DNA of 64,000 nucleotides from a virus. A model generated the notes under the pieces. That model did no database searches and was not told the origin of the DNA. It saw only the letters and a program-made list of their open reading frames with translations. Below, piece by piece: positions 8,048 to 59,438 of the stretch. The translations under genes and the position numbers were made by a program. The DNA lies in IMG/VR virus record IMGVR_UViG_3300045974_000462, positions 2,974 to 66,973 of that record; one strand, 5' to 3'. How positions within the stretch are numbered: position 1 is the stretch's first letter; each line of letters starts with the position of its first letter.

Positions 8048-8120
8048 GGTGTAGCGACCATTCTGTGGCATCTTCTACTGTGTGAGGGCGCTGCTCTCTA
8101 TCCTACTCGGAGGTGTTGTC
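8048..8120 (+). promoter_or_regulatory. Conserved promoter cassette copy 1
   Basis: AGCGAC(8053)-17-TACTGT, GAGGG..CTCTC hairpin, GGAGG RBS. Confidence 0.8.
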
Positions 8121-12217: not shown

Positions 12218-13573
12218 CTATATCCCGGCTCTTCTGTTTCGCTCCTCACGCTCCTTGGCTTGCGCGGCACGTTCGTCTGGCAGCGTGTCGTGTTCGCCTC
12301 TCTGGTAGACCTTGACCTCGTTGTTCGGCGAGTATGAGGACCATGCGGATTGTTCAAAATCTCCACCGACTCGCTGCTTGATGTCGTAGTGGTCCCTGTT
12401 AAACTTGATGTGCCGCTGCTCCGGTTCGTACTTGTCCTCGTTGGTGGTGATCTGGACTCTCGGCTTTCCTCCCGGCCATGCCTGGACGTAGACTCCGGCG
12501 TCGTGCATGCCGTATTCCTTCGCCACTTCGACCAGCTTGGTGGCGATCTCGTGCGCCTTGGCGTGCTGGTTCTTCCGAGCGCTCGCCAGTATTGTGTCGT
12601 AGTTTTTGGTATTCCTTGCGGTCGCGTCGGCGTCGTATCGCTCGGTTAGTCCATTCTGTTGGCCTCTTCCCCATGCGTTCGATAGGTCTCCGCTATGGTG
12701 CGGGTTCTTGTTTGCTCCGTGGCCGAGTATCCCGGCTCGTGTCCCGTTGGCCCATGCTTCGTCTTTGGTGGTGGCTACCGCAGCGGGTACTGGTTTCGGT
12801 GCTGGCGCTGTGGTAGGCATGACCGCGAGCGTTACCCAGACGTCTCCGCCTTTGGTGCTGCTTCCCCTCGGAGTCTTGAAAACTTTTGATGTGGTGTTTT
12901 TGCCGGACCCGGTGACGCGGATGTCGTATCCCTGCTCGGCAAACCAGTTGTGCATATCTCCATCGGGGCTCCATCGTTTTTTCAGGCTGTCATGCCTGTC
13001 GTTTCCTCCGTAGTAGTAGCTGTCATAAACCGTCAGGTTTCCCCCTGGGTCGACGGCGGTCCTACCGTTACCTCCGGCTTCGGTGTATCCGAAGTCTGAG
13101 GAGCGGAGCGCTGCTTGGACGGCGAGTGCCGACCTCTTGTCCGGCTTGACGAAGGCTGGCGTCGGTGAGGGCTCTGGCGTCGGCATGGGAGTAGGGTCTG
13201 GTACCGGGTCGGAGTATTTCGGTGGATGTGCCGTCCACTTCATCTCCCCTTTCTGGTGGCCTTCCAGCATCTCGATCTCGTGGAAGTGTCCGCCGTGCAT
13301 GTTCTCCGTGCGACCGGTGTGGCGGGCAGCGTCGCCGTTGATAAAGACCGTTGTTCCCTTCGGTCTGGCGAGCGGGACGTCCGGTGGCCTCGGGTTCTTC
13401 GCGGCGATAATGCTGCTGGTCCCGCTGCGATTGGTCCGGGTGTATCCGACGTGGTGGGGGTCGGCATTTCCGAAGAGGTCAAGTTGCGCCGGGTTGTGTG
13501 CCGCTCTCGCCTTCAGGAGTGCGACCGTGATGGCAGCGGCGTGGGATATGGCCTTCTGGAGTTGGTCGATCAT
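12218..13573 (-). CDS. Tagged putative internal head protein, 451 aa
   Basis: N-tag QLQKAISHAAAITVALLKA..QLDLFG..HHVGYTRTNRSGTSSI; Pro-rich linkers. Confidence 0.8.
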   Translation of the reverse strand: MIDQLQKAISHAAAITVALLKARAAHNPAQLDLFGNADPHHVGYTRTNRSGTSSIIAAKNPRPPDVPLARPKGTTVFINGDAARHTGRTENMHGGHFHEIEMLEGHQKGEMKWTAHPPKYSDPVPDPTPMPTPEPSPTPAFVKPDKRSALAVQAALRSSDFGYTEAGGNGRTAVDPGGNLTVYDSYYYGGNDRHDSLKKRWSPDGDMHNWFAEQGYDIRVTGSGKNTTSKVFKTPRGSSTKGGDVWVTLAVMPTTAPAPKPVPAAVATTKDEAWANGTRAGILGHGANKNPHHSGDLSNAWGRGQQNGLTERYDADATARNTKNYDTILASARKNQHAKAHEIATKLVEVAKEYGMHDAGVYVQAWPGGKPRVQITTNEDKYEPEQRHIKFNRDHYDIKQRVGGDFEQSAWSSYSPNNEVKVYQRGEHDTLPDERAAQAKEREERNRRAGI

Positions 13574-13597: not shown

Positions 13598-14008
13598 TTA
13601 TTTGTTATTCCTGCGGGTTTCGATGTATTTAGTGCCGTGGTTTTCGCTGATTTCGTCGCGGGTATGCTGTTCTTTCCAATCCATGATGATCTTCTGGTTG
13701 TTTTCAAGCGTGCGCAGTTTCTCTATGACGACCTTGTGTTCTCCGTCGTAGAGCCCGACCTTCTCGTTGATGCTGTCGAGTTTGCCGTTTATCCCGTTGC
13801 CCATCATGACAATTATGGCGACTCCTGCCGCGAAAATCAGACCGTTAGATTTCATCCAGAATTTGTTGGTCTTCAGGGTGCTGATGGTGTCCATGTGATC
13901 TCTGCAGGCCGGGTGACTTGAGACTACATCATCTCCGTGCTCGTAGTTGTAATCGTTGAGGCCATTAGCATTGTCGTTATCGGATTTCCTGCGGTTGTGT
14001 GGCTCCAT
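13598..14008 (-). CDS. Single-TM membrane protein with coiled coil
   Basis: RRKSD N-terminus, TM LIFAAGVAIIVMM, GGAG RBS. Confidence 0.7.
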   Translation of the reverse strand: MEPHNRRKSDNDNANGLNDYNYEHGDDVVSSHPACRDHMDTISTLKTNKFWMKSNGLIFAAGVAIIVMMGNGINGKLDSINEKVGLYDGEHKVVIEKLRTLENNQKIIMDWKEQHTRDEISENHGTKYIETRRNNK

Positions 14009-15047: not shown

Positions 15048-17731
15048 CGTGGGGTCTCCTTGCGGCGTGGGTCCGGCAGGCGTAGCGACCTGAAAAGTGA
15101 GCCTTGAGCCCATCCGGCCCGGTCCGGCTTCTCGGTGAGCCCGGACGCGGCCAGTTCCTTGGTGTCGATATGGCGACCGGCTGCGAGTTCGGCTTTCTGT
15201 CGGGCTCGTGTTCGGGCGCTCAGTCCGTCCTCGATCTGGGCCTTGTCGGTCAGGTATGCATGGACTTGTGCCTCGGCCTCGACTACTTTCTGTCGGGTCG
15301 GCTCGTCCAGCTTGTTCCAGTGGGGCAGGTGTTCAAAGCGGTAGTGGCGGAGTTTGTGGAGGTCGTAGTGGTTGTTGGCGTGGGCGAGTTTATTCCCGTA
15401 TGACCGGACGCGGCTATCCTCGTGCTGCCTGACGAGGGTGACCGCTCCGGACGGGATGTTGCGGTAGAATTCGTGGACTAGGGCTTTCTTAAGTCCTAGT
15501 TTGGTGAGAATCCTTCCGGCAATGCTCCGGGGTCCGGCTCCTTGCTCTTTGGTACTGCGGTCTTGGGTTTTAGGGTAGTAGTCTTGGCCGGTGCAGGTTT
15601 CCCCGCTGGAGCAGGTACCGGTGCGGGTGTCGGGGCGTTGGCAGCATCCTGGAGCGCCATCTGCTTTTCGGAGATAGCTATGGCGTCCATGAGGATGCTG
15701 CGTTTCTTCGCGTAAAGTTCTTTCTGCTTCTGTTCGTCGGCCATATGTGCCTCCTGATTTGATAAGTTGCGTCAGGTATCTTACCGATTTTTCAGCGTTA
15801 TCGCTACTCTTTAATTTCGCAAACGCTCCGGTGACTACCTGCTTCTTGTCCTTTGGCTGGTATGGCGTAGCGAAGAAGTCCTCTTGATCGACTTCCTTGG
15901 TGCGGTTGACGATCTCGTTGTGTATGGCCTGCGCGATGGACCCGAGCATGGTGCCGAGTTTGTCGGCGCTCCCGACGTGCTTCTCGATGGCCAGTGCAAA
16001 TTCCTTACCGTAGTCCGTGGCGAATCCCTGTTGATTGCGGTCCGTTCCGTCTCCTCCCAGACCCATGTCGCTCTGTTGAAACATTTGGGAGATGGTGCTG
16101 TTGCCGTTGCGGGCCCGGATGACGTTGCGTATGGCCTCTGTCATGTCAGGTATCACGTTGAATTCGTCGTTTCCATGAAGTTTGGCAAAATGGCCGACTG
16201 CGTTATTGAGCCCACCGATGATCCGCTTCATCCCGCTGTTGGCGCTCTCGGCCATCTGCTTGATCAGTGGTAAGTCTTGATAAATTTTGGCGAAAATTGC
16301 GGACTGTATCCGTTCTGCGCATTGCTTGTTCGGGGTGCCGTTTTCGTCTACGAGACCATCGGCCTCGTTGCGGCCTATCTTCGCAAAAAATCCCTGAATG
16401 AAGGGCAGGCTCGATTGCGCTTCAACATCAAATTCCCCGTCTTCGTTCGGGTTGAATTTGGCGAGCAGGGCGTCGTCTATCCGTCCTCCGTCCACGACTG
16501 CCTGTTGCGTCGGGCTCTCCTTTTTCTGCATTGGTACGTTGGCCTCGTGGGCGAAATTGGCGCGGTTGACTCCCTCCTGTGGCTCCCTGACCCGGACGAT
16601 CATCGGCATCTTCATGCCTTCGGCGGCTGCGGGGTCGATCCCGAATTCCTGCTGTGCGTTCTCGGTGATCCAGTCCTTGTATTCCTTCGCCTTGTCAGGG
16701 TTGGTCTCGTAGGCCATTTTGATTGCCAGAGACCGACCGTTTCCGCTCTCGACCATTCCGTCCTTGCCGACTATGGGCGATCCGTCTGACGCGAGCGGGT
16801 TCTTGCCAAATAACTCAGGCTCCAGCTTGTTCGCCAGTTTGACAATCTGCATCCGGCTGGCGACAGACGATCGGTCTCGGGGCTGGAGTTCGCTCGGGTA
16901 GTCGGTGTTTTCCGCTCCCTCTGCGCTGTGGCTGGTGGTCAAGCTGTCGCCGTCGACGAGGGCGTACTGCACCGGGTACTTCCCGAGGGTGTGGGTGATC
17001 GCGTTGGCCTTGTGTCCGAAGACGAACGTGGGCGCGGCTTTCTTTCCAGAGGAGAACTGCTCCTTCTTTCGCTCCGTCAGGTCGACGGCTCCCTTGATTT
17101 TGCGGTCCGGGTCGCCTCCTGCGGCCTCGACGGTTCCGTCCTTGCCGAGAATAACTTGGTGGCCGTTCTTCTCCATGACCGTGTGTTGTTCGGAGTCGTC
17201 GGCCTCGTGTCCGAAGTGCTTTAGGAGTTTCGTGCGATAGTCGTCTTCGGCCTGGGTATACAGGTTGCTCCGCGAGGTCTTGAATGCCTTTAGGTGGGCG
17301 ACGGGGTCGTCTCCTCCTGTCGCTGTGTGCATTGCCTTTATCTTGGTATTGGAGGTTTTGCGGGCGTCGTTGGTCTTGTTACGCTCCGTCTCGGGATAAA
17401 GGTTTGACTCAAAGTCTGGCCGGTCCTTGGCTTTACCTTCCGGGAGGTCTTTGTTGCGCTTGATGGCTGACTGCTCGCGCTTCTGCCATCCGGAGTCGGT
17501 CAGGTGCTGGAGGAGTTCGGCGTGGTGCGCCAGCTTATTGCCGGGGGAGACTTCTTCGCCGTGGCGGCGCTCGTGGGCGACGAGGTCAGGGTGCTTTATC
17601 ACCTTATTGTCGTGCTCCCTGACCAGAGTCCCGTCTTGACGGGTGTACTGGTGGATATGGCTTTTGGTCAGGGAATCAAAAAAAAAAGGTGCTTCCCCTG
17701 AAGCGGGCCTCCATTTGTCACGGCTACCCAT
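15044..17731 (-). CDS. Large tagged protein with DdrB-like ParB domain; start uncertain, possibly a frameshift fusion to the upstream sigma-like gene
   Basis: LTKSHIHQYTRQDGTLVREHDNK tag; YALVDGDSLTTSH...ELQPRDRS...DGSPIVGKDGMVESGNGRSLA; second tag LKKALVHEFYRNIPSGAVTLVRQHEDSR. Confidence 0.75.
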   Translation of the reverse strand: MGSRDKWRPASGEAPFFFDSLTKSHIHQYTRQDGTLVREHDNKVIKHPDLVAHERRHGEEVSPGNKLAHHAELLQHLTDSGWQKREQSAIKRNKDLPEGKAKDRPDFESNLYPETERNKTNDARKTSNTKIKAMHTATGGDDPVAHLKAFKTSRSNLYTQAEDDYRTKLLKHFGHEADDSEQHTVMEKNGHQVILGKDGTVEAAGGDPDRKIKGAVDLTERKKEQFSSGKKAAPTFVFGHKANAITHTLGKYPVQYALVDGDSLTTSHSAEGAENTDYPSELQPRDRSSVASRMQIVKLANKLEPELFGKNPLASDGSPIVGKDGMVESGNGRSLAIKMAYETNPDKAKEYKDWITENAQQEFGIDPAAAEGMKMPMIVRVREPQEGVNRANFAHEANVPMQKKESPTQQAVVDGGRIDDALLAKFNPNEDGEFDVEAQSSLPFIQGFFAKIGRNEADGLVDENGTPNKQCAERIQSAIFAKIYQDLPLIKQMAESANSGMKRIIGGLNNAVGHFAKLHGNDEFNVIPDMTEAIRNVIRARNGNSTISQMFQQSDMGLGGDGTDRNQQGFATDYGKEFALAIEKHVGSADKLGTMLGSIAQAIHNEIVNRTKEVDQEDFFATPYQPKDKKQVVTGAFAKLKSSDNAEKSVRYLTQLIKSGGTYGRRTEAERTLREETQHPHGRHSYLRKADGAPGCCQRPDTRTGTCSSGETCTGQDYYPKTQDRSTKEQGAGPRSIAGRILTKLGLKKALVHEFYRNIPSGAVTLVRQHEDSRVRSYGNKLAHANNHYDLHKLRHYRFEHLPHWNKLDEPTRQKVVEAEAQVHAYLTDKAQIEDGLSARTRARQKAELAAGRHIDTKELAASGLTEKPDRAGWAQGSLFRSLRLPDPRRKETPR
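15496..15744 (-). CDS. 82-aa Pro/Ala/Lys-rich ORF nested out of frame in the DdrB-like ORF
   Basis: Strong AGGAGG RBS; MADEQKQKELY... Confidence 0.5.
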   Translation of the reverse strand: MADEQKQKELYAKKRSILMDAIAISEKQMALQDAANAPTPAPVPAPAGKPAPAKTTTLKPKTAVPKSKEPDPGALPEGFSPN

Positions 17732-19029
17732 TGGCCTTCGGGGTGGAGATCATCGAGGCGCTCTCCCTGTCGGCTCTTTCTGAATTCCTCGGTGCAGAGA
17801 AAAACCCGGCGACCGTCGATGGTCTTGACCTGTGGCCGGTTCTTCCGGGCCTTCTGCAGCGTCCGGAGTTCCTGTATCGACCGGAGGAGGTCGTGCAGTT
17901 GCGCGACGCCTTTGTTCTGCCCGAGTTCTTCCAGCAGGTTCATGACGCGGCGGTGGGCGAGGCGGTCGTTCCATTCGTAGTCGTAGTTTTTGGCGGTGAC
18001 GTAGGGTACTCCCATCTCGTTCATGGCGTCGGCCAGTTCCCGGTATGTGTGCTCCTCGTGTGGCGCGAGTCCGAATCTGCGGTATATGATGTCTTGGTTG
18101 ACGGGATCGAGGTCGTCAATGGCGGCATTGATCCGCTCCGCTATCAGCTTCTCTTCCTGTGCCTTCTCGTAGAGGGATTGCGGGGTGTTCTCGTCGGCGA
18201 TGTTGTCGAGGGGGTCGGTGTCGCCGTCATCATCGTCGTGAAGGAGTGGGTCGCGGAGTTCCTTGCGGATATCGGTCAGGCGCTTGACGTCGGCGAGGGC
18301 GACCGTCTTCGCTTCTCGGTTCATGGCGACAAAAATGCGGGAGTTTGGTCGACCTTTGATCGAGACGGCTTCGGGGTCTTTGAGCCATGCGTCGTAATGG
18401 TCGAGGTCTTCTTTAAAGGCGGAGATGTCCTCTTCGGTGGCGGTGGCGGCTTCCCGGCGCAGGGAGTTCATTATTCCGATGGTGGCCTCGGCGTCGAGGT
18501 TGTCCCAATCGTCAGACTCGCGGTCGATGCTGTTGGTCCCGGCGTAGTTGGCGACGACGGCTCGCTTCATGTTCTGGATCTTGGGGTGCATCAAGATAGC
18601 GCCTTCCGTCATCCCCATCCGGACCGGGATGCTCTCGGCTCGCTCGTTGGAGACGGTGGCAGTCAGGCGGCGTCCCTTGGTGCTGGTCGTTTCCATGTTC
18701 GGGTTGGTGGCATATTTGTAGGCTTGGTTCTCGGAGTGTTCCTCTGGTGTCCAGATCATGTCCTCGTGGATATGGTGCTGTGGTCTCTGGCGGGTGCCTC
18801 TGAGCATCTTGCCTTGCACCACGAAGTGCTCCGCCATGTGGCTGTCATGGACAATGGTTCCCCTGCGGGCCTTTGGTGACCCGGCCACTTTATAAAAAAC
18901 GTCTTGGCCGGGGCTAAACTTCTGACCGACGTGGATCATGGCTCCGGTGATCGGATTGCGGCGATTGTATGCGACGTGACCGCGTTCTCCTGTGGTGGCG
19001 AGTGCTCCGGATTTTACCATAAGCAACAT
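17668..19029 (-). CDS. Sigma70-family-like factor carrying the N-terminal head tag
   Basis: MLLMVKS..GHVAYNRRNPITG tag; region 2-like DNLDAEATIGIMNSLRR; region 3-4-like DPLDNIADENTP...AAIDDLDPVNQDIIYRRFGL..EEHTYRELA; GGAGG RBS. Confidence 0.75.
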   Translation of the reverse strand: MLLMVKSGALATTGERGHVAYNRRNPITGAMIHVGQKFSPGQDVFYKVAGSPKARRGTIVHDSHMAEHFVVQGKMLRGTRQRPQHHIHEDMIWTPEEHSENQAYKYATNPNMETTSTKGRRLTATVSNERAESIPVRMGMTEGAILMHPKIQNMKRAVVANYAGTNSIDRESDDWDNLDAEATIGIMNSLRREAATATEEDISAFKEDLDHYDAWLKDPEAVSIKGRPNSRIFVAMNREAKTVALADVKRLTDIRKELRDPLLHDDDDGDTDPLDNIADENTPQSLYEKAQEEKLIAERINAAIDDLDPVNQDIIYRRFGLAPHEEHTYRELADAMNEMGVPYVTAKNYDYEWNDRLAHRRVMNLLEELGQNKGVAQLHDLLRSIQELRTLQKARKNRPQVKTIDGRRVFLCTEEFRKSRQGERLDDLHPEGQWVAVTNGGPLQGKHLFFLIP

Positions 19030-30061: not shown

Positions 30062-31075
30062 TTACTGGTTGTCGTAGAGCATCTTCCTGACCTCGTCCAC
30101 TACGGTCTCCGCGCCATCCCGTCCATTAAAAAGCAGTCTTCTCGCGTCGTCGAGGCGTTCCGATCCCTGCGTGAATACCTGTTTATCCTTCCCGCTCATC
30201 GTGGCTGCGGCTTGCTCCATCCTGCGCGAGATGTCGGTGAGTTTCTGTCGTACGGCGTCTGCATCGTGAAACTGCAGGCTCGACAGGTCTCCTCGGATGT
30301 CCCGGTGGATCTGCTCCCTGTTGGCGGTAGTCGTTGGCGTCATCCCTCTCGCCAGTTCATGCATTTTCGCTATGGCGCTGTGGGCCTCCATTTTGTACCG
30401 GTGGCGGTCCGCCGTGGCGTAGTTCCCGGCCATTTCCGCATTGTCGGCCTTATGCTCGTAGACGCTCGACTGTGACCAATGGTGCGCCTCTGCTGCGGCG
30501 TGGTCGGCTTTGTCCCATCCTAGCGATCCGAAATGGTTAGCGACTGCTTGGCCGTGGGCTCTCGTGACGTTGCCTCGGTCGGGGTCGCCGTCTGAGTTGT
30601 GCGTCGACTCGATGTCGTATGCCGAGTGCGAAATCGCGGGCGTGGTATCGGCGGAGAACTTTGCGGGTTGTTCCACTTGCCGGTTGATGGTGGTCCGTGG
30701 TTTCCGTGGCGGCTTCATTCTGCCAGCTATGGCGTAGTGGTGCATCGCGGCTTCGCTATGGGCGTTTGGGTCGCTGGCGTCTCCGCTGTTACCGAATGCT
30801 TTTTGATGGGCTCTGAAGGCGTCGATGTGGTCCTGGTGGGTTCCGCTGTAGTTCGCCTTGCGGGTTGCCTCGTTTGCGGCTGCGGCGTCTGCCGACAGTG
30901 GGGCTCTCCCTCTGGCTGCGACGGTGCTCACGTGACCGCTCTGGTTGGTCCTGGTGTATGCGACGTGGTGGGGCTCGGGCGATCCACCGAATAACGACAG
31001 TTGCTCGCTCTTTTTCAGCAGCTCGACCGCTGCTCCTGCGGCCTGCTGGATTGCCTTGTTTAGTTCCGTGGTCAT
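30062..31075 (-). CDS. Tagged His/Ala-rich putative internal head protein
   Basis: ELNKAIQQAAGAAVELLKKSEQLSLFGG..HHVAYTRTNQSGHVSTVAARG. Confidence 0.8.
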   Translation of the reverse strand: MTTELNKAIQQAAGAAVELLKKSEQLSLFGGSPEPHHVAYTRTNQSGHVSTVAARGRAPLSADAAAANEATRKANYSGTHQDHIDAFRAHQKAFGNSGDASDPNAHSEAAMHHYAIAGRMKPPRKPRTTINRQVEQPAKFSADTTPAISHSAYDIESTHNSDGDPDRGNVTRAHGQAVANHFGSLGWDKADHAAAEAHHWSQSSVYEHKADNAEMAGNYATADRHRYKMEAHSAIAKMHELARGMTPTTTANREQIHRDIRGDLSSLQFHDADAVRQKLTDISRRMEQAAATMSGKDKQVFTQGSERLDDARRLLFNGRDGAETVVDEVRKMLYDNQ

Positions 31076-32262
31076 GGTCCTTTCCTCCTGAGTAGTAGTG
31101 CGGCAAACGCCTTGACCAGCTTGCGCCAGAGCACTCGGTTGCGTTTCGGGTCAAACTTCATTCTGTCCGCGATGTAACCGGTAACCACGGAGTAATAACT
31201 TCCGCTGGCGTCCTTCCTGGCCTCCACGACGTGGATCTTCTGCCTGCCGTCGTGCTCCGAAACGAGCGCGATCCGGTTACCGTCGAGGGCGTATATGACG
31301 TTAAAATTGGCGAGCACGTCGGCGACAAAGGCTTGCTCATCGGGGTATCCTGCGGCCTTGATTTCCGCTCCGTGCTGCTGCCGGATGTGCTCCAGTCCGA
31401 ATCCGCGATGATCGTCGATCTGCTTGCCTTGGGTCAGGCGGATCGTGGTCGCTCCCATCTTCTTGGCGACCTCGGGCGGTATCTGGTAGTCGTGGACCGG
31501 GGCGTCGGGGTTACTGCGGGTCTCTGGCTTTCTGTTGCCTCCCAAGACAACGATCTCGGTTTCGATGATGTTGCCATGTCCTGTTGCCGGGGTGCTGAAG
31601 ATGTAGCGTGCAGGGATGTCTGCCTCGACCACTTCTCCGCCTGCCTCCTGTCTTACCCAGCTATCGTCAAGAGCCCAGCAGGAGAAGGTCTTGTCCTCTG
31701 CCATCCCGCCTTTGCGGTGCGCGTGGACGCTGGTGATGCCTCGCTCCTTGAGCCACTCCTGCGTGGTGTCGTAAATAGTCGATCCTAACGAGTGGAGGCA
31801 GCGGGTGATTCCCTCTTTTCCGTTGTCCTTGCACCATTGTTCGATTCTTGCGGCCTTGTCGTATTCGGGGGTATTGAGTCCGGCGTGTCTGGCGGCGTAG
31901 TTCATTATCACGCTGTTCTCGTTACCTCCGGCGCTTCCGGTGTGCTCTTTAAGCAGTTGGTAGATGACTGCCTCTTTGCGGTATTCGGTGCTCGCTTCCG
32001 GCTTGAATTTATAACCGCTGTATGCGGTGTACTCATCGAGGTCTTTGCGGTCAACGTCCCACCGTGCTGCCACTTTTTGTGCGGTCTTTTCTATGTGTCC
32101 GTACATCGACAGGTCATGTCCGTCCTTCAGGTCGTGCTTGGTGAGGGTGCGCGTCTCGGGTTTTCGCTGGCGGCGGTCGTCGTAGGCGCGGACGGTGCCG
32201 CTGGCTCCGGAGGCGTAGTGGCGCTCGTGCTGGTCGACGTGGGACTTTATAAGCAGGCGCAT
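31072..32262 (-). CDS. Tagged polyvalent protein: ADP-ribosyltransferase-like domain plus PBECR-like RNase
   Basis: MRLLIKSHVDQHERHYASG tag; HR..FSCW..IPARYIFST..TG.G..ETEIVVLG (R-S-E); IRLTQG..GFGLEHIRQQH...YYSVVTGY. Confidence 0.7.
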   Translation of the reverse strand: MRLLIKSHVDQHERHYASGASGTVRAYDDRRQRKPETRTLTKHDLKDGHDLSMYGHIEKTAQKVAARWDVDRKDLDEYTAYSGYKFKPEASTEYRKEAVIYQLLKEHTGSAGGNENSVIMNYAARHAGLNTPEYDKAARIEQWCKDNGKEGITRCLHSLGSTIYDTTQEWLKERGITSVHAHRKGGMAEDKTFSCWALDDSWVRQEAGGEVVEADIPARYIFSTPATGHGNIIETEIVVLGGNRKPETRSNPDAPVHDYQIPPEVAKKMGATTIRLTQGKQIDDHRGFGLEHIRQQHGAEIKAAGYPDEQAFVADVLANFNVIYALDGNRIALVSEHDGRQKIHVVEARKDASGSYYSVVTGYIADRMKFDPKRNRVLWRKLVKAFAALLLRRKGP

Positions 32263-33125
32263 AGGGTTTGCTCCTTCGCGGCTCTTATCTTCCTTCTCCG
32301 TTCGCGGTTGTATTCAACCATTTTCGCGTACTGCTCCGGTTGCTCTATCTTAATTTTCTGGAATGCGACCTTTTTCTTGGCGAGTATGGCGTCCCTTGTC
32401 TTGGCTCGGTACTGCTTTCGGTATTCTGTGAATCGTTCCTTGTTTTGCGAGTCGTACTCTTTTTTCTTGTCGGGATTTTCTTTTCTCCGTTTTTTTGCTC
32501 CATCTCTGTTGCGCTTTTTCCTTCGTTCTTCCCTGAACTGGTCGTCGACCTGCTGGAGTCCTTCTTTCCTGAAACCCGAGACTTGGTTGATTCCGAGTTC
32601 CTTTTCGGTCAAAACTACATAAACGATTCCCTTCTCTTTCAGGTGTTCTCTGGCAACTTCGTATTTTGCTGTATTCGCTGCGTGGTCTCTTGACCATGCT
32701 GGCTTGATTTCTTCTATCGTTATCCCTGTGGACCGGTTGACGGTGAAGTCTGGGATGTACTTCTTCCCGTTCGGCATGGGTATTGGATCGACTGTTCGTG
32801 TCCACGAAATGACGCTTTCGTCGGCGTCCAGTTGCTGCATCCTGACCAATTCGTATGAGGACATTCCATGTTCCCATTTGCCGGTTTTGGTGGATTGCCA
32901 CCATCCTCCGTTTCCGTGGTAGACTCCCGTTGGCCTCTGCTTGTATGTGGGTACGGCTCTTGCTTCGGAGTGGGTTCGCGTTGCTCCGAATTTATCTAAT
33001 CTGGAATAAATGACTCTCTTGGTAACTCCTAGCCTTTGAGAAATTGCTGATGGTGGCATTTTCTCGTCTCGGTATAATCTTATTATTTCTGCGACTACGT
33101 CGTTACTGGTTGTGTTGGTTCCCAT
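32247..33125 (-). mobile_element. Free-standing TnsA-N-like PD-(D/E)XK homing endonuclease with HTH and basic coiled coil
   Basis: SSYELVRMQQLD..YIPDF..IEEIKP; lower GC; overlaps both neighbours. Confidence 0.7.
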
Positions 33126-37102: not shown

Positions 37103-37138
37103 GGGATACAAGATGCCGCAGAATGGTCGCTGACCCCT
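37103..37138 (-). promoter_or_regulatory. Promoter cassette core, minus-strand copy (13th)
   Basis: GGGGTCAGCGACCATTCTGCGGCATCTTGTATCCC upstream of 37067. Confidence 0.8.
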
Positions 37139-42145: not shown

Positions 42146-42376
42146 TCATGCTTTGGTGGCGGCGTCTCGCTCTGACCGGTCGTATCTCTGCTTCAGGTTG
42201 TAGGTTCTGGCTCCGAATGTACCCAGAACTGAGTGTAGGTCGTTCACGATCTGGGCATGCTCTTGGCAGTAACCGGTGGCGTCGCCGATGTCGTTGACTC
42301 TATGGAGCATGACCTCGTTTGCGTCTATGGCGGCTAGGACTCTGACGGCTTTGTCGGATAGGCTTTCGTGGGTCAT
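42146..42376 (-). CDS. Hypothetical protein
   Basis: ATGA-coupled to the GIY-YIG gene. Confidence 0.5.
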   Translation of the reverse strand: MTHESLSDKAVRVLAAIDANEVMLHRVNDIGDATGYCQEHAQIVNDLHSVLGTFGARTYNLKQRYDRSERDAATKA

Positions 42377-43071
42377 GGCGCGACCTCGCTCTGTGCAGAT
42401 TTGGGTTGAAATCCGTTTTTGTGGCGACCTGTTGCGTGTGCGGTCACCATTCCTTGGCGTATCTTGGACTTGTGGTCTTCGGAGAGTTTGTTTCCATAGT
42501 GAGCAATGCTGAGTTTATGCTTTTGCTCATCGCTAAGTGGTCCGTATGTTCTGCTGGCGTTTGCTTTTTTCCCCATCTCTCTCATTGTGTCGATGTTGGT
42601 TCTTAATTTCGCGGATGTGCTCATTTTGGCTCTTGCTTCATCGGTGGACTTTCGGCCTTTGTGTGTTTCGCTTATCTGTGCCTTCTGCTCGTCGGTTATT
42701 GGACCTTTAGGGTTTTTCTTGAATCTTGCTATTTGTGCTTCGGACATTTTCCGTCTTGTCTGCTCTCCGTGTATCATTACTCCTTCTCGGTCAGGTGCCT
42801 GCATGGTGTTAAATGACCGCTCTGTTTTGGATAGTATTGCTCTTTCCCTGTCTCTAAGGCTATTCGGTGGTTCGACGGTTTCAATCAGATTGAAGTTGAA
42901 ATCCGCAGCTCCGTGTTTCGACCATGCTCTTTGTAACCACGGAGCGTGGTGTCTGCCACAGTCGAGGTCGCTTTTGTGTCGCTTCCATCGTCGGCTTATG
43001 TTTGTGGAGCTACCGATATAAGAAATGCCTGTGGTGATCTGGGTGATGGCGTAAATACCGCTTATCTTCAT
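42373..43071 (-). mobile_element. GIY-YIG homing endonuclease with NUMOD3 repeats
   Basis: SGIYAITQITTGISYIGSS...R; RRKMSEAQ, KAQISETHKG, RAKMSTS. Confidence 0.9.
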
Positions 43072-46367: not shown

Positions 46368-47053
46368 GGTGCTGTCTCCTTTTGGTTGGTGGTCAGTAGC
46401 TTCTCGGCGTCGCAGCAGCGGCATCCGTTGCCGTTCTGGTATTTGTGGCTGTCAGAGTCGCAGTCGTAACCGTCGCGGATTCCTTCGGCGAATTCCCGGA
46501 GCGCCTTGTTCTCCGCCTTCAGAGCCTTGATGGTCGCGAGGGCTACCTTGATGTCGGTGGTTCCGAGTTCCTTCTCGACTTCGCGGGCTATGCGTTGACC
46601 GGTTGCTGCCAGTTCCGGTTGGCTACCGTCTTCGGTGGAGCAGTTCGGTTTCGGCATGGTCTGCGTCGGGAACAGTATGGGTTCCCAATGGTCGCGGTCC
46701 ATGCCGAGGGGGTGGTCCGGGTCCGGTGGTCGTTCCGTCCAGGCGCGGCGGTAGTTGAGGGCGGTCTTGACCTCGTAGACGAGACTGCTGTTGTGGCCTC
46801 CTCCGGCGTATCCGTATCCGCTGTTCGGTCCGAGGTCCGGGCAGAGAATCCGCTGGAGGGCGTCGGTGACCTGCGTCAGTCCCTGTTCTCTCTGGCGCTG
46901 CCATTCGTCGCGATCGCCTTCGAAGTGCTCCATGACGATCCGCCATTGCCCCATCTTGGCCCGGTGGAAAACCTCCAGGGCTTCGCTGACGGCTGCGGCG
47001 TGCTCCCGGCTCAACCGGAGCAGGTAGGTCGGTTGCTTCTTGTCACCACTCAT
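46364..47053 (-). CDS. Hypothetical protein
   Basis: 229 aa, coupled on both sides. Confidence 0.7.
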   Translation of the reverse strand: MSGDKKQPTYLLRLSREHAAAVSEALEVFHRAKMGQWRIVMEHFEGDRDEWQRQREQGLTQVTDALQRILCPDLGPNSGYGYAGGGHNSSLVYEVKTALNYRRAWTERPPDPDHPLGMDRDHWEPILFPTQTMPKPNCSTEDGSQPELAATGQRIAREVEKELGTTDIKVALATIKALKAENKALREFAEGIRDGYDCDSDSHKYQNGNGCRCCDAEKLLTTNQKETAP

Positions 47054-47228
47054 CGTCGGCTCCTTCGGTCATCAGGGCGAGGGTCGGTCCGGCGTGCTCC
47101 TCGCAGAGTTCGGAGAATTCCATGAAGGGCGAGCACTGCGTGTCGTTCGGGTCGGCGGGTCCGATGTATGTTCCCGGTCCCGGCAGGAAGGCGCGACCGC
47201 ATCCGGGGTGGGTGCAGGTGAAGGTCAT
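47043..47228 (-). CDS. Small Cys/His protein
   Basis: CTHPGCGR..CEEH. Confidence 0.55.
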   Translation of the reverse strand: MTFTCTHPGCGRAFLPGPGTYIGPADPNDTQCSPFMEFSELCEEHAGPTLALMTEGADDEW

Positions 47229-47905
47229 TTAAGCTCCAGTCTCATGTTGAATTCTGCGAGGACTTCTTTTATTTGGTGGACGCTTTTTCTGCCCATGTGT
47301 GGTATTGCGAGCAGTTCGCTTTCGCTTTTGCTTGTCAGTTCTTCGATGTTTGTTATTCCTGCTTTCAAGAAACAGTTGTTAACTCTAACTGTGAAATAGT
47401 CGTAAAGTTCCCATCTATCAAATTCTTGGCGCAGCTTTTTATTTTGCTCTCGCAGTCTGTCTTGCAATACTTGTGCTGCCCATACCCTTACTTCCAGTAT
47501 CTTGCGTATGGGTTCTAGTCTTGCAATTGTTTCAAGTTCTTTGTTCTTTTCCCTCCGGTTCTTTAGGTCTTCTTTATATTTATCTGTCTGCCTATAATTG
47601 CTCCACCATTCTTTTTTGTGGTTTTTGTATTCTTCCGTCTCCATTAGGCGCTTGCGCTCTGGGCTGTTTCTATATTGCTTTTGCCATTCCTTTCTTGATT
47701 GATCGCTTGGCGTGCTTCGTCTCGGGCTAGGTAGTCCGCTCTTTACTCTCTGAGTGTAGTTTTCATTCCATTTTTTTTGTAGTACGCGGTCCTCTGGGGT
47801 ACTGCGTATCGCTTTTCTGCAAGCGATACAGGCTCCTCCCTTGTTGACGTTGTCCGGCGTTCTCGGGTGGCCTCGTTTGCAAAGTTTGACCTCTGCTGTT
47901 TCCAT
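47225..47905 (-). CDS. Zn-finger/coiled-coil protein with C-terminal RNA polymerase alpha-CTD-like domain
   Basis: CKRGH..CIAC; FTVRVNNCFLKAGITNIEELTSKSESELLAIPHMGRKSVHQIKEVL. Confidence 0.8.
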   Translation of the reverse strand: METAEVKLCKRGHPRTPDNVNKGGACIACRKAIRSTPEDRVLQKKWNENYTQRVKSGLPSPRRSTPSDQSRKEWQKQYRNSPERKRLMETEEYKNHKKEWWSNYRQTDKYKEDLKNRREKNKELETIARLEPIRKILEVRVWAAQVLQDRLREQNKKLRQEFDRWELYDYFTVRVNNCFLKAGITNIEELTSKSESELLAIPHMGRKSVHQIKEVLAEFNMRLELK

Positions 47906-48594
47906 CAGAATCCCTTTCCATTCTTCGGCGGTCGGTGCTGGTTGCGGTCATCGTTGCGGTGAATGGCTGCGACTAGTTCCGTCTCCATCCCGTTTCCTGC
48001 GGCGTAGCTGAAAACGCGGAGGACGATGTCGGCCAGTTCCTCGACTACCGAGTACCGGTCGATGATGGTGCTGTGGTCGTGGTGGTCGGTCGCGGTGCGC
48101 CGATATGCCTCGTGCCGATCTGCTGCCTCCACAATGGCTGTGCAAAAGGAGACCGTTTCTTGCGACGTGACCTGTATCTCGTCTATCCATCCGAGCGTCT
48201 CGGCGACCTCTCCGGCGATCCCGCTGATGCAGGTAGCGTGTTGTGTCAGGTCGATGCCGTTGTCGGTGCTGGTCTTCGCGGCCTTGCGCATCAGGTTGGC
48301 GAGGTGCTGGTCGCCGTAGCGCTGCATGGCTGCTGCTTCAGGGTCGTGCTTCGGGTCCGCTGGCATGAAGTCGGGACGGTTGAGCAGTTCGTTGAGTTGG
48401 TCTCTGGTGGCGAGTGCGGCCTTGCGCATCTCGGGGACGCCTTTCTGCTTACCGGATGCTAAGAGCACGGAACAGAAGACTTGCGCGATGGAGGTTATAT
48501 CTTCGGTGATGGTTGAAGGTGGCGGGATGTTCGGGCTCAGTCCGCGTTGGTGCAGGGCTTCTTCGCTGGCTCGGATGATCTGGTTGTGGTTCAT
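47905..48594 (-). CDS. MazG-like nucleotide pyrophosphohydrolase
   Basis: IAGEVAE...VVEELADIVLRVF. Confidence 0.75.
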   Translation of the reverse strand: MNHNQIIRASEEALHQRGLSPNIPPPSTITEDITSIAQVFCSVLLASGKQKGVPEMRKAALATRDQLNELLNRPDFMPADPKHDPEAAAMQRYGDQHLANLMRKAAKTSTDNGIDLTQHATCISGIAGEVAETLGWIDEIQVTSQETVSFCTAIVEAADRHEAYRRTATDHHDHSTIIDRYSVVEELADIVLRVFSYAAGNGMETELVAAIHRNDDRNQHRPPKNGKGF

Positions 48595-48604
48595 GCGGAC
48601 TCCC

Positions 48605-48979
48605 TTACCATAATACTTTGAAGTTGCGTTTTCTGCAGGCGTTGTACCCTCTTGCTTTTTTCCCACACTCGCTACATCTGGTAGATCTTTTTGTTTCTGT
48701 CATTAGGTTGTTTCTGCGGATCAATGAGTCCCTTCCGCATATCGAGCAGTTGCAAACGTACCAGTATACTCCGGCATCATCCTTCCCGCTGTATTCCAAA
48801 ACGGTGAGCCATCCTATTTTATTGCCAACAATGTCTTGTGGGTCGACTTTTCCGTTAAACACGATGGACTCTTTTTTCGGGTGACATGGCTTATCCTTCC
48901 TATGTTTTGCGTCCGGGTCCGGCTTCCGCTCCATTCGCCATTCGTCTTGGCCTACCCGGTTCTCGTTGGGGTGAATCAC
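48605..48979 (-). CDS. Zn-binding domain typical of HNH/AP2 homing endonucleases, no nuclease domain
   Basis: GNKIGWLTVLE..WYVCNCSICG..RCSEC. Confidence 0.6.
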   Translation of the reverse strand: MIHPNENRVGQDEWRMERKPDPDAKHRKDKPCHPKKESIVFNGKVDPQDIVGNKIGWLTVLEYSGKDDAGVYWYVCNCSICGRDSLIRRNNLMTETKRSTRCSECGKKARGYNACRKRNFKVLW

Positions 48980-58964: not shown

Positions 58965-59438
58965 ATGGCGTGTTTGAATAAAGTTATGTTGATTGGCCGG
59001 TTGGGGAAAGATCCCGAGGTGCGGTATACCGCTTCGGGTGTTGCGGTGGCGTCCTTCTCGATTGCGACGTCGGAGAAATTCAAAAAAGATGGCGAGTGGG
59101 TTGAAAAGTCCGAATGGCACAACATTGTGCTCTGGGACAAAAAGGCGGAACTGGCGAAAGAATACCTCTCGAAAGGTAAACTCGTCTATATCGAGGGTCG
59201 GCTGCAAACCCGGAAATGGGAGGACCGGGATGGGAAGGACCGCTGGTCTACTGAAATCGTTGGTGACCAGATGCAGTTCCTGTCTCCGAAAGGTGACGGC
59301 GAGGGTGGTGGTTCCGGTCGTGCCTCGGGTCACAACCATGATTCCGGTGCCGATAATTACGACTCGGGTCAATTCAATCCAGACGACGATATCCCGTTTT
59401 TCCAGGCGCGGCGCTTCTTCGATTCTTCCCTCGGTTAG
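58965..59438 (+). CDS. ssb: Single-stranded DNA-binding protein with C-terminal extension
   Basis: [42 protein letters not shown]. Confidence 0.95.

Follow-up and report, generated by a model that had tools for sequence, protein, structure and literature searches.

Why would a phage encode the DNA-binding domain of a polymerase subunit without the part that builds it into a polymerase? This question is raised by a single gene in a 64,000-nucleotide stretch of viral DNA (the window; positions 2,974 to 66,973 of the IMG/VR record IMGVR_UViG_3300045974_000462). The gene lies on the minus strand at 47225-47905 and encodes a protein of 226 amino acids, P0001, which is composed of a putative zinc finger, a charged arm, an amphipathic helix and a C-terminal domain like the one that RNA polymerase's alpha subunit carries (alpha-CTD). 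An earlier note, made from the sequence alone, gave this open reading frame and described a lower-GC gene. Both descriptions are correct: the GC content is 0.44 in the gene against 0.58 in its flanks, with an abrupt fall at the stop-codon end.

The same note aligned the C-terminal residues by eye with the RpoA CTD (the segment that it quoted is residues 172-216), and our searches confirm that this is a true alpha-CTD and a member of PF03118. The domain covers residues 166-226 (47228-47410, minus strand). The Pfam profile matches residues 171-218 (47252-47395) with an E-value of 3.2e-14 and 52.8 bits, above the cut-off of 23.8. In a sequence search of solved structures the B. subtilis alpha-CTD 3gfk_B matches P0001 with an E-value of 1.5e-7, and Atlas searches return RpoA-like rows only. 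Residues 158-226 were modelled from 30 related sequences (pLDDT 86); the input alignment includes RpoA CTDs, so that model and sequence match are not independent lines of evidence. The helix-hairpin-helix fold of an alpha-CTD is present in this model. Foldseek places nothing but RpoA CTDs at the top of its list (for E. coli 1lb2_E the rmsd is 0.6 Å over 54 columns), and with VIA-align the model agrees best with 1z3e_B (Z 9.9, rmsd 1.8 Å over 61 residues). In a wide structural search, five alpha-CTD chains (Z 7.8-9.9) outrank the other helix-hairpin-helix and SAM domains (Z 6.5 or below). P0001 is the sole PF03118 match in the whole 69,374-bp virus record, which is 79% complete.

A true alpha-CTD does not make the protein an RpoA. 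Neither PF01000 nor PF01193, the Pfam families that would indicate the N-terminal domain (alpha-NTD), matches P0001, and the full-length RpoA model TIGR02027 gives 48 bits against a cut-off of 228. RpoA was ruled out on these two grounds. In the absence of the alpha-NTD, the protein is unable to assemble into a polymerase.

What has the domain kept of the surfaces with which an alpha-CTD works? On the DNA face (the 265 determinant) six of seven residues are retained. R174, N177, C178, G205, K207 and S208 of P0001 correspond to E. coli R265, N268, C269, G296, K298 and S299, and the position of E. coli N294 is a histidine (H203). R265, N268, N294 and K298 are published alpha-CTD contacts with DNA (PMC5101437; PMC13004042). 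N294, a minor-groove contact, is retained in most viral copies of the domain but not in P0001. The domain is 42-49% identical to 32 RpoA CTDs from Desulfobacterota, which are 68-100% identical among themselves. This low identity, together with the kept 265 residues, points to an old and diverged copy whose DNA face is largely intact. The case for preferential retention of that face is suggestive only. Of its seven positions six are unchanged, compared with 12 of the 27 other near-invariant RpoA positions; this difference is not significant (Fisher p=0.06), and the DNA-face residues have structural roles too. The substitutions in the hydrophobic core are conservative. A tree of alpha-CTDs is mostly unresolved; it places P0001 on a long branch and assigns no donor.

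Elsewhere on the domain, the 287 patch, the surface for activator contacts, reads KSESE, with a serine in place of E. coli V287, and recurs unchanged in 4 of the 32 Desulfobacterota RpoA sequences, a comparison that covers the likely host group only. The surface near 291-295 and 300-302 differs from Desulfobacterota RpoA. The 261 region, which contacts sigma region 4, has an indel immediately before position 262, and its register is different in each of three alignments. The idea that the 261 determinant is lost in P0001 was dropped, as the alignment there is ambiguous.

These surfaces bear on the possibility that the domain is a protein decoy. It would titrate binding partners of the host alpha-CTD (activators or NusA, for example) or an enzyme that modifies it, for instance an ADP-ribosyltransferase (ART) of the T4 Alt/ModA kind, specific for Arg265. 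The target may possibly be the phage's own ART-like protein, encoded at 31072-32262 on the minus strand. We consider a decoy unlikely. The 287 patch is host-like if the host is among the Desulfobacterota, and the phage SSB gene (58965-59438, plus strand), whose product is 55-58% identical to Desulfuromonadales SSBs, points in that direction; as the sole host clue this likeness is a lead, not proof. R265 is the residue that T4 Alt/ModA ADP-ribosylates (PMC2988020), and the activator DriD also contacts it (PMC13004042). In the ORF at 31072-32262 an R-S-E-like pattern is seen, PBECR1 is matched weakly (E=0.013) and an Atlas lead points to an ADP-ribosyltransferase family; the score of this lead, 0.80, is below the Atlas reliability level, and Pfam, NCBIfam and PDB give the assignment no support. 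The low identity of the domain to Desulfobacterota RpoA CTDs and its different surface at 291-295 and 300-302 speak against a decoy, for which the DNA-binding arm is also superfluous.

That arm belongs to the N-terminal half of the protein, which is of homing-endonuclease type, an origin that the earlier note overlooked. Residues 9-29 (47819-47881, minus strand) form the motif C-x2-G-H-x5-N-x6-C-x2-C. When residues 1-165 were compared with 1.84 billion representative proteins, 38 relatives were found (E<=0.001). All of these match via the finger, which is often repeated, and the residues C9, G12, H13, N19, C26 and C29 are conserved over them. The zinc motif that had been read from the sequence is therefore well founded, and the conserved residues would be expected to bind zinc. 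Downstream of the finger is a helical arm (residues 36-125; 47531-47800, minus strand) that is charged, rich in tyrosine and tryptophan and 19% hydrophobic, and in which the 13-residue repeat of relatives has decayed. It is followed by an amphipathic helix (residues 126-165; 47411-47530, minus strand), which shows no match to the tail module that relatives of the finger carry. The region had been described as a basic coiled coil. A heptad-like pattern upholds that description for residues 126-165 only; by family and composition most of the supposed coiled coil is probably an arm of the DNA-binding type.

The relatives show that the finger and arm belong to a mobile phage module, carried elsewhere beside an HNH, EndoVII or GIY-YIG nuclease or a small tail domain. 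The HNH family phrog_826 is matched by 25 of the 39 family members (P0001 itself does not match) and EndoVII is matched in 5. Several of the proteins that host the module carry HNH, and GIY-YIG-type ORFs, read by eye, carry the module too. The relatives occupy unrelated gene contexts, and the GC content is below that of the surrounding locus in 17 of 25. The finger of I-TevI is of a different type from that of P0001. Over the finger and arm (residues 5-133) P0001 is 36% identical to the protein of one locus, L048. In one subfamily of relatives an arm of 13-residue repeats is joined to a conserved LxDxY..ELIELKR tail module. An HMM of 10 members, which scores these at 59-78 bits (its own training set), finds no such module in P0001. 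This phage family, with finger, repeat arm and tail and without a nuclease (L048:2486-2998; P0002, P0018, P0021, P0024, P0026 and others), is unnamed, and three members that were scanned gave no convincing NCBIfam match.

P0001 itself has no nuclease domain that Pfam or PHROG could find; the finger, arm, helix and alpha-CTD fill all 226 residues. A single-sequence fold of the whole protein (pTM 0.30) gives no usable domain arrangement. Without a nuclease domain, a homing endonuclease is ruled out. P0001 is thus neither an RpoA nor a homing endonuclease, as the defining feature of each was tested for and is absent.

Is the same combination of domains found elsewhere? In the sets that we searched, the fusion of the zinc finger with an alpha-CTD is a singleton, a second point that had been overlooked. 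No full-length relatives were found in 5.8 billion proteins (by a word-based and length-limited search), in viral contigs, metagenome contigs, named phages or an exact look-up, or among 301 genomes of the likely host phylum. Neither the 38 relatives of the finger module nor the 47 distinct ORFs that two contig scans yielded carry an alpha-CTD; these ORFs partly overlap the 38 proteins and are in some cases cut by contig ends. L110 was considered as a second fusion and rejected, since its alpha-CTD is a separate gene of 119 aa. This stand-alone alpha-CTD-like gene (L110:429-788) lies in a prophage-like run of small genes. A syntenic phage with an empty site was not found; the upstream neighbour has no relatives, and relatives of the terminase (up to 58%) share no flanking small genes with the P0001 locus.

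The alpha-CTD alone recurs in phages. Two scans, with one 8-residue pattern each, found 22 IMG/VR contigs with an alpha-CTD and no alpha-NTD, to which one metagenome contig is added. The proteins at these loci are of 116-265 aa, with no alpha-NTD, S4 or L17 nearby, and the partners of the domain are coiled coils, sigma region 4 or segments of no assigned kind. R265 is invariant in an alignment of the viral alpha-CTDs; G296, K298 and S299 are likewise invariant, but are part of the search pattern. A viral structure library contains many phage proteins that are already named for the domain. No functional study of a phage-encoded alpha-CTD was found in the literature, in which subscription journals were thinly covered, and these proteins are apparently unstudied although annotated in databases. 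Among bacteria, we observed a 773-residue open frame with an alpha-CTD match (L161; G115:C1, 2787856-2788014) that is too long for RpoA; the genome, G115, has three alpha-CTD matches.

In its genomic setting the gene overlaps both neighbours. The start codon shares bases with the stop of the upstream gene (TGATG), and the stop codon shares bases with the downstream start (ATGA). A Shine-Dalgarno-like AGGGA, read directly off the sequence at 47911-47915 (minus strand), is 5 nt 5' of the start and within the end of the upstream gene, which encodes a MazG-like pyrophosphatase (47905-48666, minus strand; phrog_3301, E=1.8e-7). Downstream, a high-GC ORF of 61 aa without a known family (47043-47228, minus strand) has its ribosome-binding site, GGAG, in the final codons of the alpha-CTD gene. 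The frame is unbroken, has a ribosome-binding site and is coupled at both ends. Its minus-strand block also contains the endolysin, terminase and portal genes, a position from which late expression is likely. The gene is a low-GC insert in the terminase-portal block. Further low-GC inserts (0.47-0.48), all on the minus strand, are a GIY-YIG gene with NUMOD3 (42373-43071), an endonuclease-like gene with a basic arm (32247-33125), an HNH N-terminal fragment (48605-48979) and a gene of no assigned kind (13598-14008). The arm of P0001 has no similarity to that of the gene at 32247-33125. Also on this strand, ribosome modulation factor (PF04957) is weakly matched within an ORF of 451 aa (12218-13573), with an E-value of 1.7e-4 and a score below the cut-off.

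An insert of this kind need not have a function of its own. P0001 could be a near-neutral chimera, in which what was left of a selfish nuclease gene and an alpha-CTD gene of phages were joined by accident, with little selected function. It would be translated through operon coupling, and its conserved residues would date from the domain's earlier life in another gene. That only one fusion is found is in keeping with this, as are the low GC that the gene shares with the GIY-YIG, endonuclease-like and HNH-fragment genes, the unrelated contexts and frequently low GC of the finger's relatives, the long branch in the tree and the decayed repeat of the arm. We nevertheless think a neutral chimera somewhat unlikely. 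A frame of 226 codons has stayed open, with all four putative zinc ligands and a foldable alpha-CTD, and the ribosome-binding site that its final codons provide for the next gene suggests that the gene has been there for a while. With a single copy of the fusion, selection on it is not measurable, which leaves some weight with a neutral chimera.

If the protein does have a function, where on the DNA might it act? The earlier note pointed to T-tracts before cassette promoters. There are 13 copies of a promoter-like 21-bp core in the genome (0 are expected by chance), located between 8054 and 62144: on the plus strand at 8054, 8730, 9178, 9716, 10744, 19123, 21117, 23872, 25797, 26771, 58907 and 62124, and on the minus strand at 37110-37130. 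Each core is followed by a -10-like hexamer, which is less well conserved than the core, and then by a ribosome-binding site. The tracts are indeed there. Every core has an A/T tract at a fixed upstream distance, and 12 of the 13 hold an A5 or T5 run against a background of 2%. If the hexamer is taken as -12 to -7, an inferred numbering, the stretch from -55 to -52 consists of A or T in 13/13, which we take to be approximately the position of the distal UP subsite. About half of the tracts double as terminator U-tails. The tract position nevertheless looks selected, since three tracts are rich in A and the sequence from tract to core is variable. No other viral or genome contig was found to contain the core, and 233 genomes gave 5 single matches at two mismatches.

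The proposal that the alpha-CTD protein acts at these tracts fared less well. We found no link between the two, and the tracts fit use by the alpha-CTD of the host RNA polymerase alone, with no need for a phage copy. Another possibility is a tethered activator, which would be held upstream of a phage promoter by its finger and arm and would stimulate initiation by a contact of its alpha-CTD with sigma region 4. The sigma factor may be that of the host or the product of a sigma-70-like ORF (17668-19029, minus strand), which is a candidate reader of the 13 cores; it matches the RpoS and SigK models with E=2e-5, below their cut-offs, and RpoS in the PDB with E=0.003. The presence of this ORF and of 13 non-consensus cores in one phage agrees with such an activator, and a contact between the alpha-CTD and sigma 4 through the 261 determinant is known (PMC1874639). 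However, the 261 region of P0001 is not alignable without an indel, none of the 13 cores is directly before the P0001 gene and an essential activator is hardly to be expected as a low-GC singleton insert. This makes a tethered activator very doubtful.

The reading that we favour, tentatively and at somewhat less than an even chance, is that P0001 is a nuclease-less, two-handed DNA binder that competes with the polymerase on AT-rich upstream sites. We propose that the gene is a recent insertion, an optional phage gene built by domain shuffling. A DNA-binding half of the homing-endonuclease type would have exchanged the nuclease or tail module that usually forms the C-terminal part for a helix and an alpha-CTD from a pool of NTD-less alpha-CTDs that circulates in phages. 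The product would neither join RNA polymerase nor cut DNA. Anchored by the finger and arm, the weak alpha-CTD could settle in AT-rich, narrow minor grooves and rival the polymerase's own alpha-CTD there, which would dampen UP-element-dependent promoters. These may be the host's or the phage's own 13 tract-bearing promoters, probably late in infection.

Several lines of evidence favour such a DNA binder. The fold, the residues, the origin of the N-terminal module, the insertion character and the recurrence of phage alpha-CTDs are established. With the fold and six of seven contact residues goes the finding that a lone alpha-CTD binds AT-rich DNA in the crystal 9zum (PMC13004042). The finger module is found on nucleases, and there is a precedent in I-TevI for a homing-endonuclease DNA-binding domain that can repress a promoter (PMC2988022). 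The frame is intact and coupled, A/T tracts stand at fixed positions upstream of 13 cores and the gene sits in the endolysin/terminase/portal block. Against these are the singleton status, the change of N294 to histidine, the non-significant enrichment of the DNA face, the weakness of alpha-CTD contacts with DNA (PMC5101437) and the lack of an identifiable site. The expression of P0001 and its timing, its binding of zinc and DNA, its target and its effect on transcription are what we infer. The earlier suggestion, a decoy or tethered alpha-CTD that redirects transcription, is partly supported, by the identity of the domain, its largely intact DNA face and a 287 patch that would be host-like in a Desulfobacterota host; the link to the tracts finds no support.

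Two more ambitious roles can be imagined for the protein. It might be a late-phase switch, the arm tethering the alpha-CTD on the A/T tracts of the 13 phage promoters, which would be shut off as the polymerase's own alpha-CTD is displaced, or its R265 might be a sink for the ART-like protein. That either is right we hold to be distinctly improbable. If true, the widespread phage alpha-CTD proteins would have their first worked example, and it would be one in which the DNA-binding module of a selfish element was turned into a regulator. As to how widespread the class is, a single type of 8-residue pattern drew out 22 viral contigs, and UniProt has many entries. P0001 is small and has candidate targets in its own genome, so that it is directly testable. 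As an example it is weakened by being a singleton fusion, from a phage without a cultured host.

How does P0001 compare with known systems? With the RpoA CTD (approximately residues 249-329; PF03118; 1lb2, 1z3e, 9zum) it has in common the fold, the fold's DNA-face residues R265, N268, C269, G296, K298 and S299, and its 287 patch equals that of 4 of 32 Desulfobacterota RpoA sequences. It differs in its missing alpha-NTD, the histidine at N294, the indel in the 261 region, an identity of just 42-49% and its tether of zinc finger and arm. Annotated phage proteins (UniProt A0A6J5L490, A0A2P1JY10 of Rhodococcus phage Finch and A0A5Q2WLP1 of Mycobacterium phage Mithril) and the 22 IMG/VR loci likewise have an alpha-CTD without the NTD, in 100-270 aa, and often, like P0001, a helical or DNA-binding partner beside the domain. 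None of those examined has the zinc finger of P0001, and upstream of the domain there is no likeness. Free-standing homing endonucleases (PHROG 826 and 1492 HNH; EndoVII PF02945) share with P0001 the zinc-finger module, charged arm, low-GC insertion and varied contexts, but P0001 lacks their nuclease domain and therefore could not home by itself. Finally, T4 Alt/ModA and the phiKMV-like Rac, which cleaves host alpha (PMC7552054), are directed at the function of the host alpha-CTD, as is supposed for P0001. These are enzymes that disable alpha, whereas P0001 copies the domain itself. Brought in with a DNA tether, such a copy would be a different control of host-type promoters than either ADP-ribosylation by T4 or cleavage by Rac.
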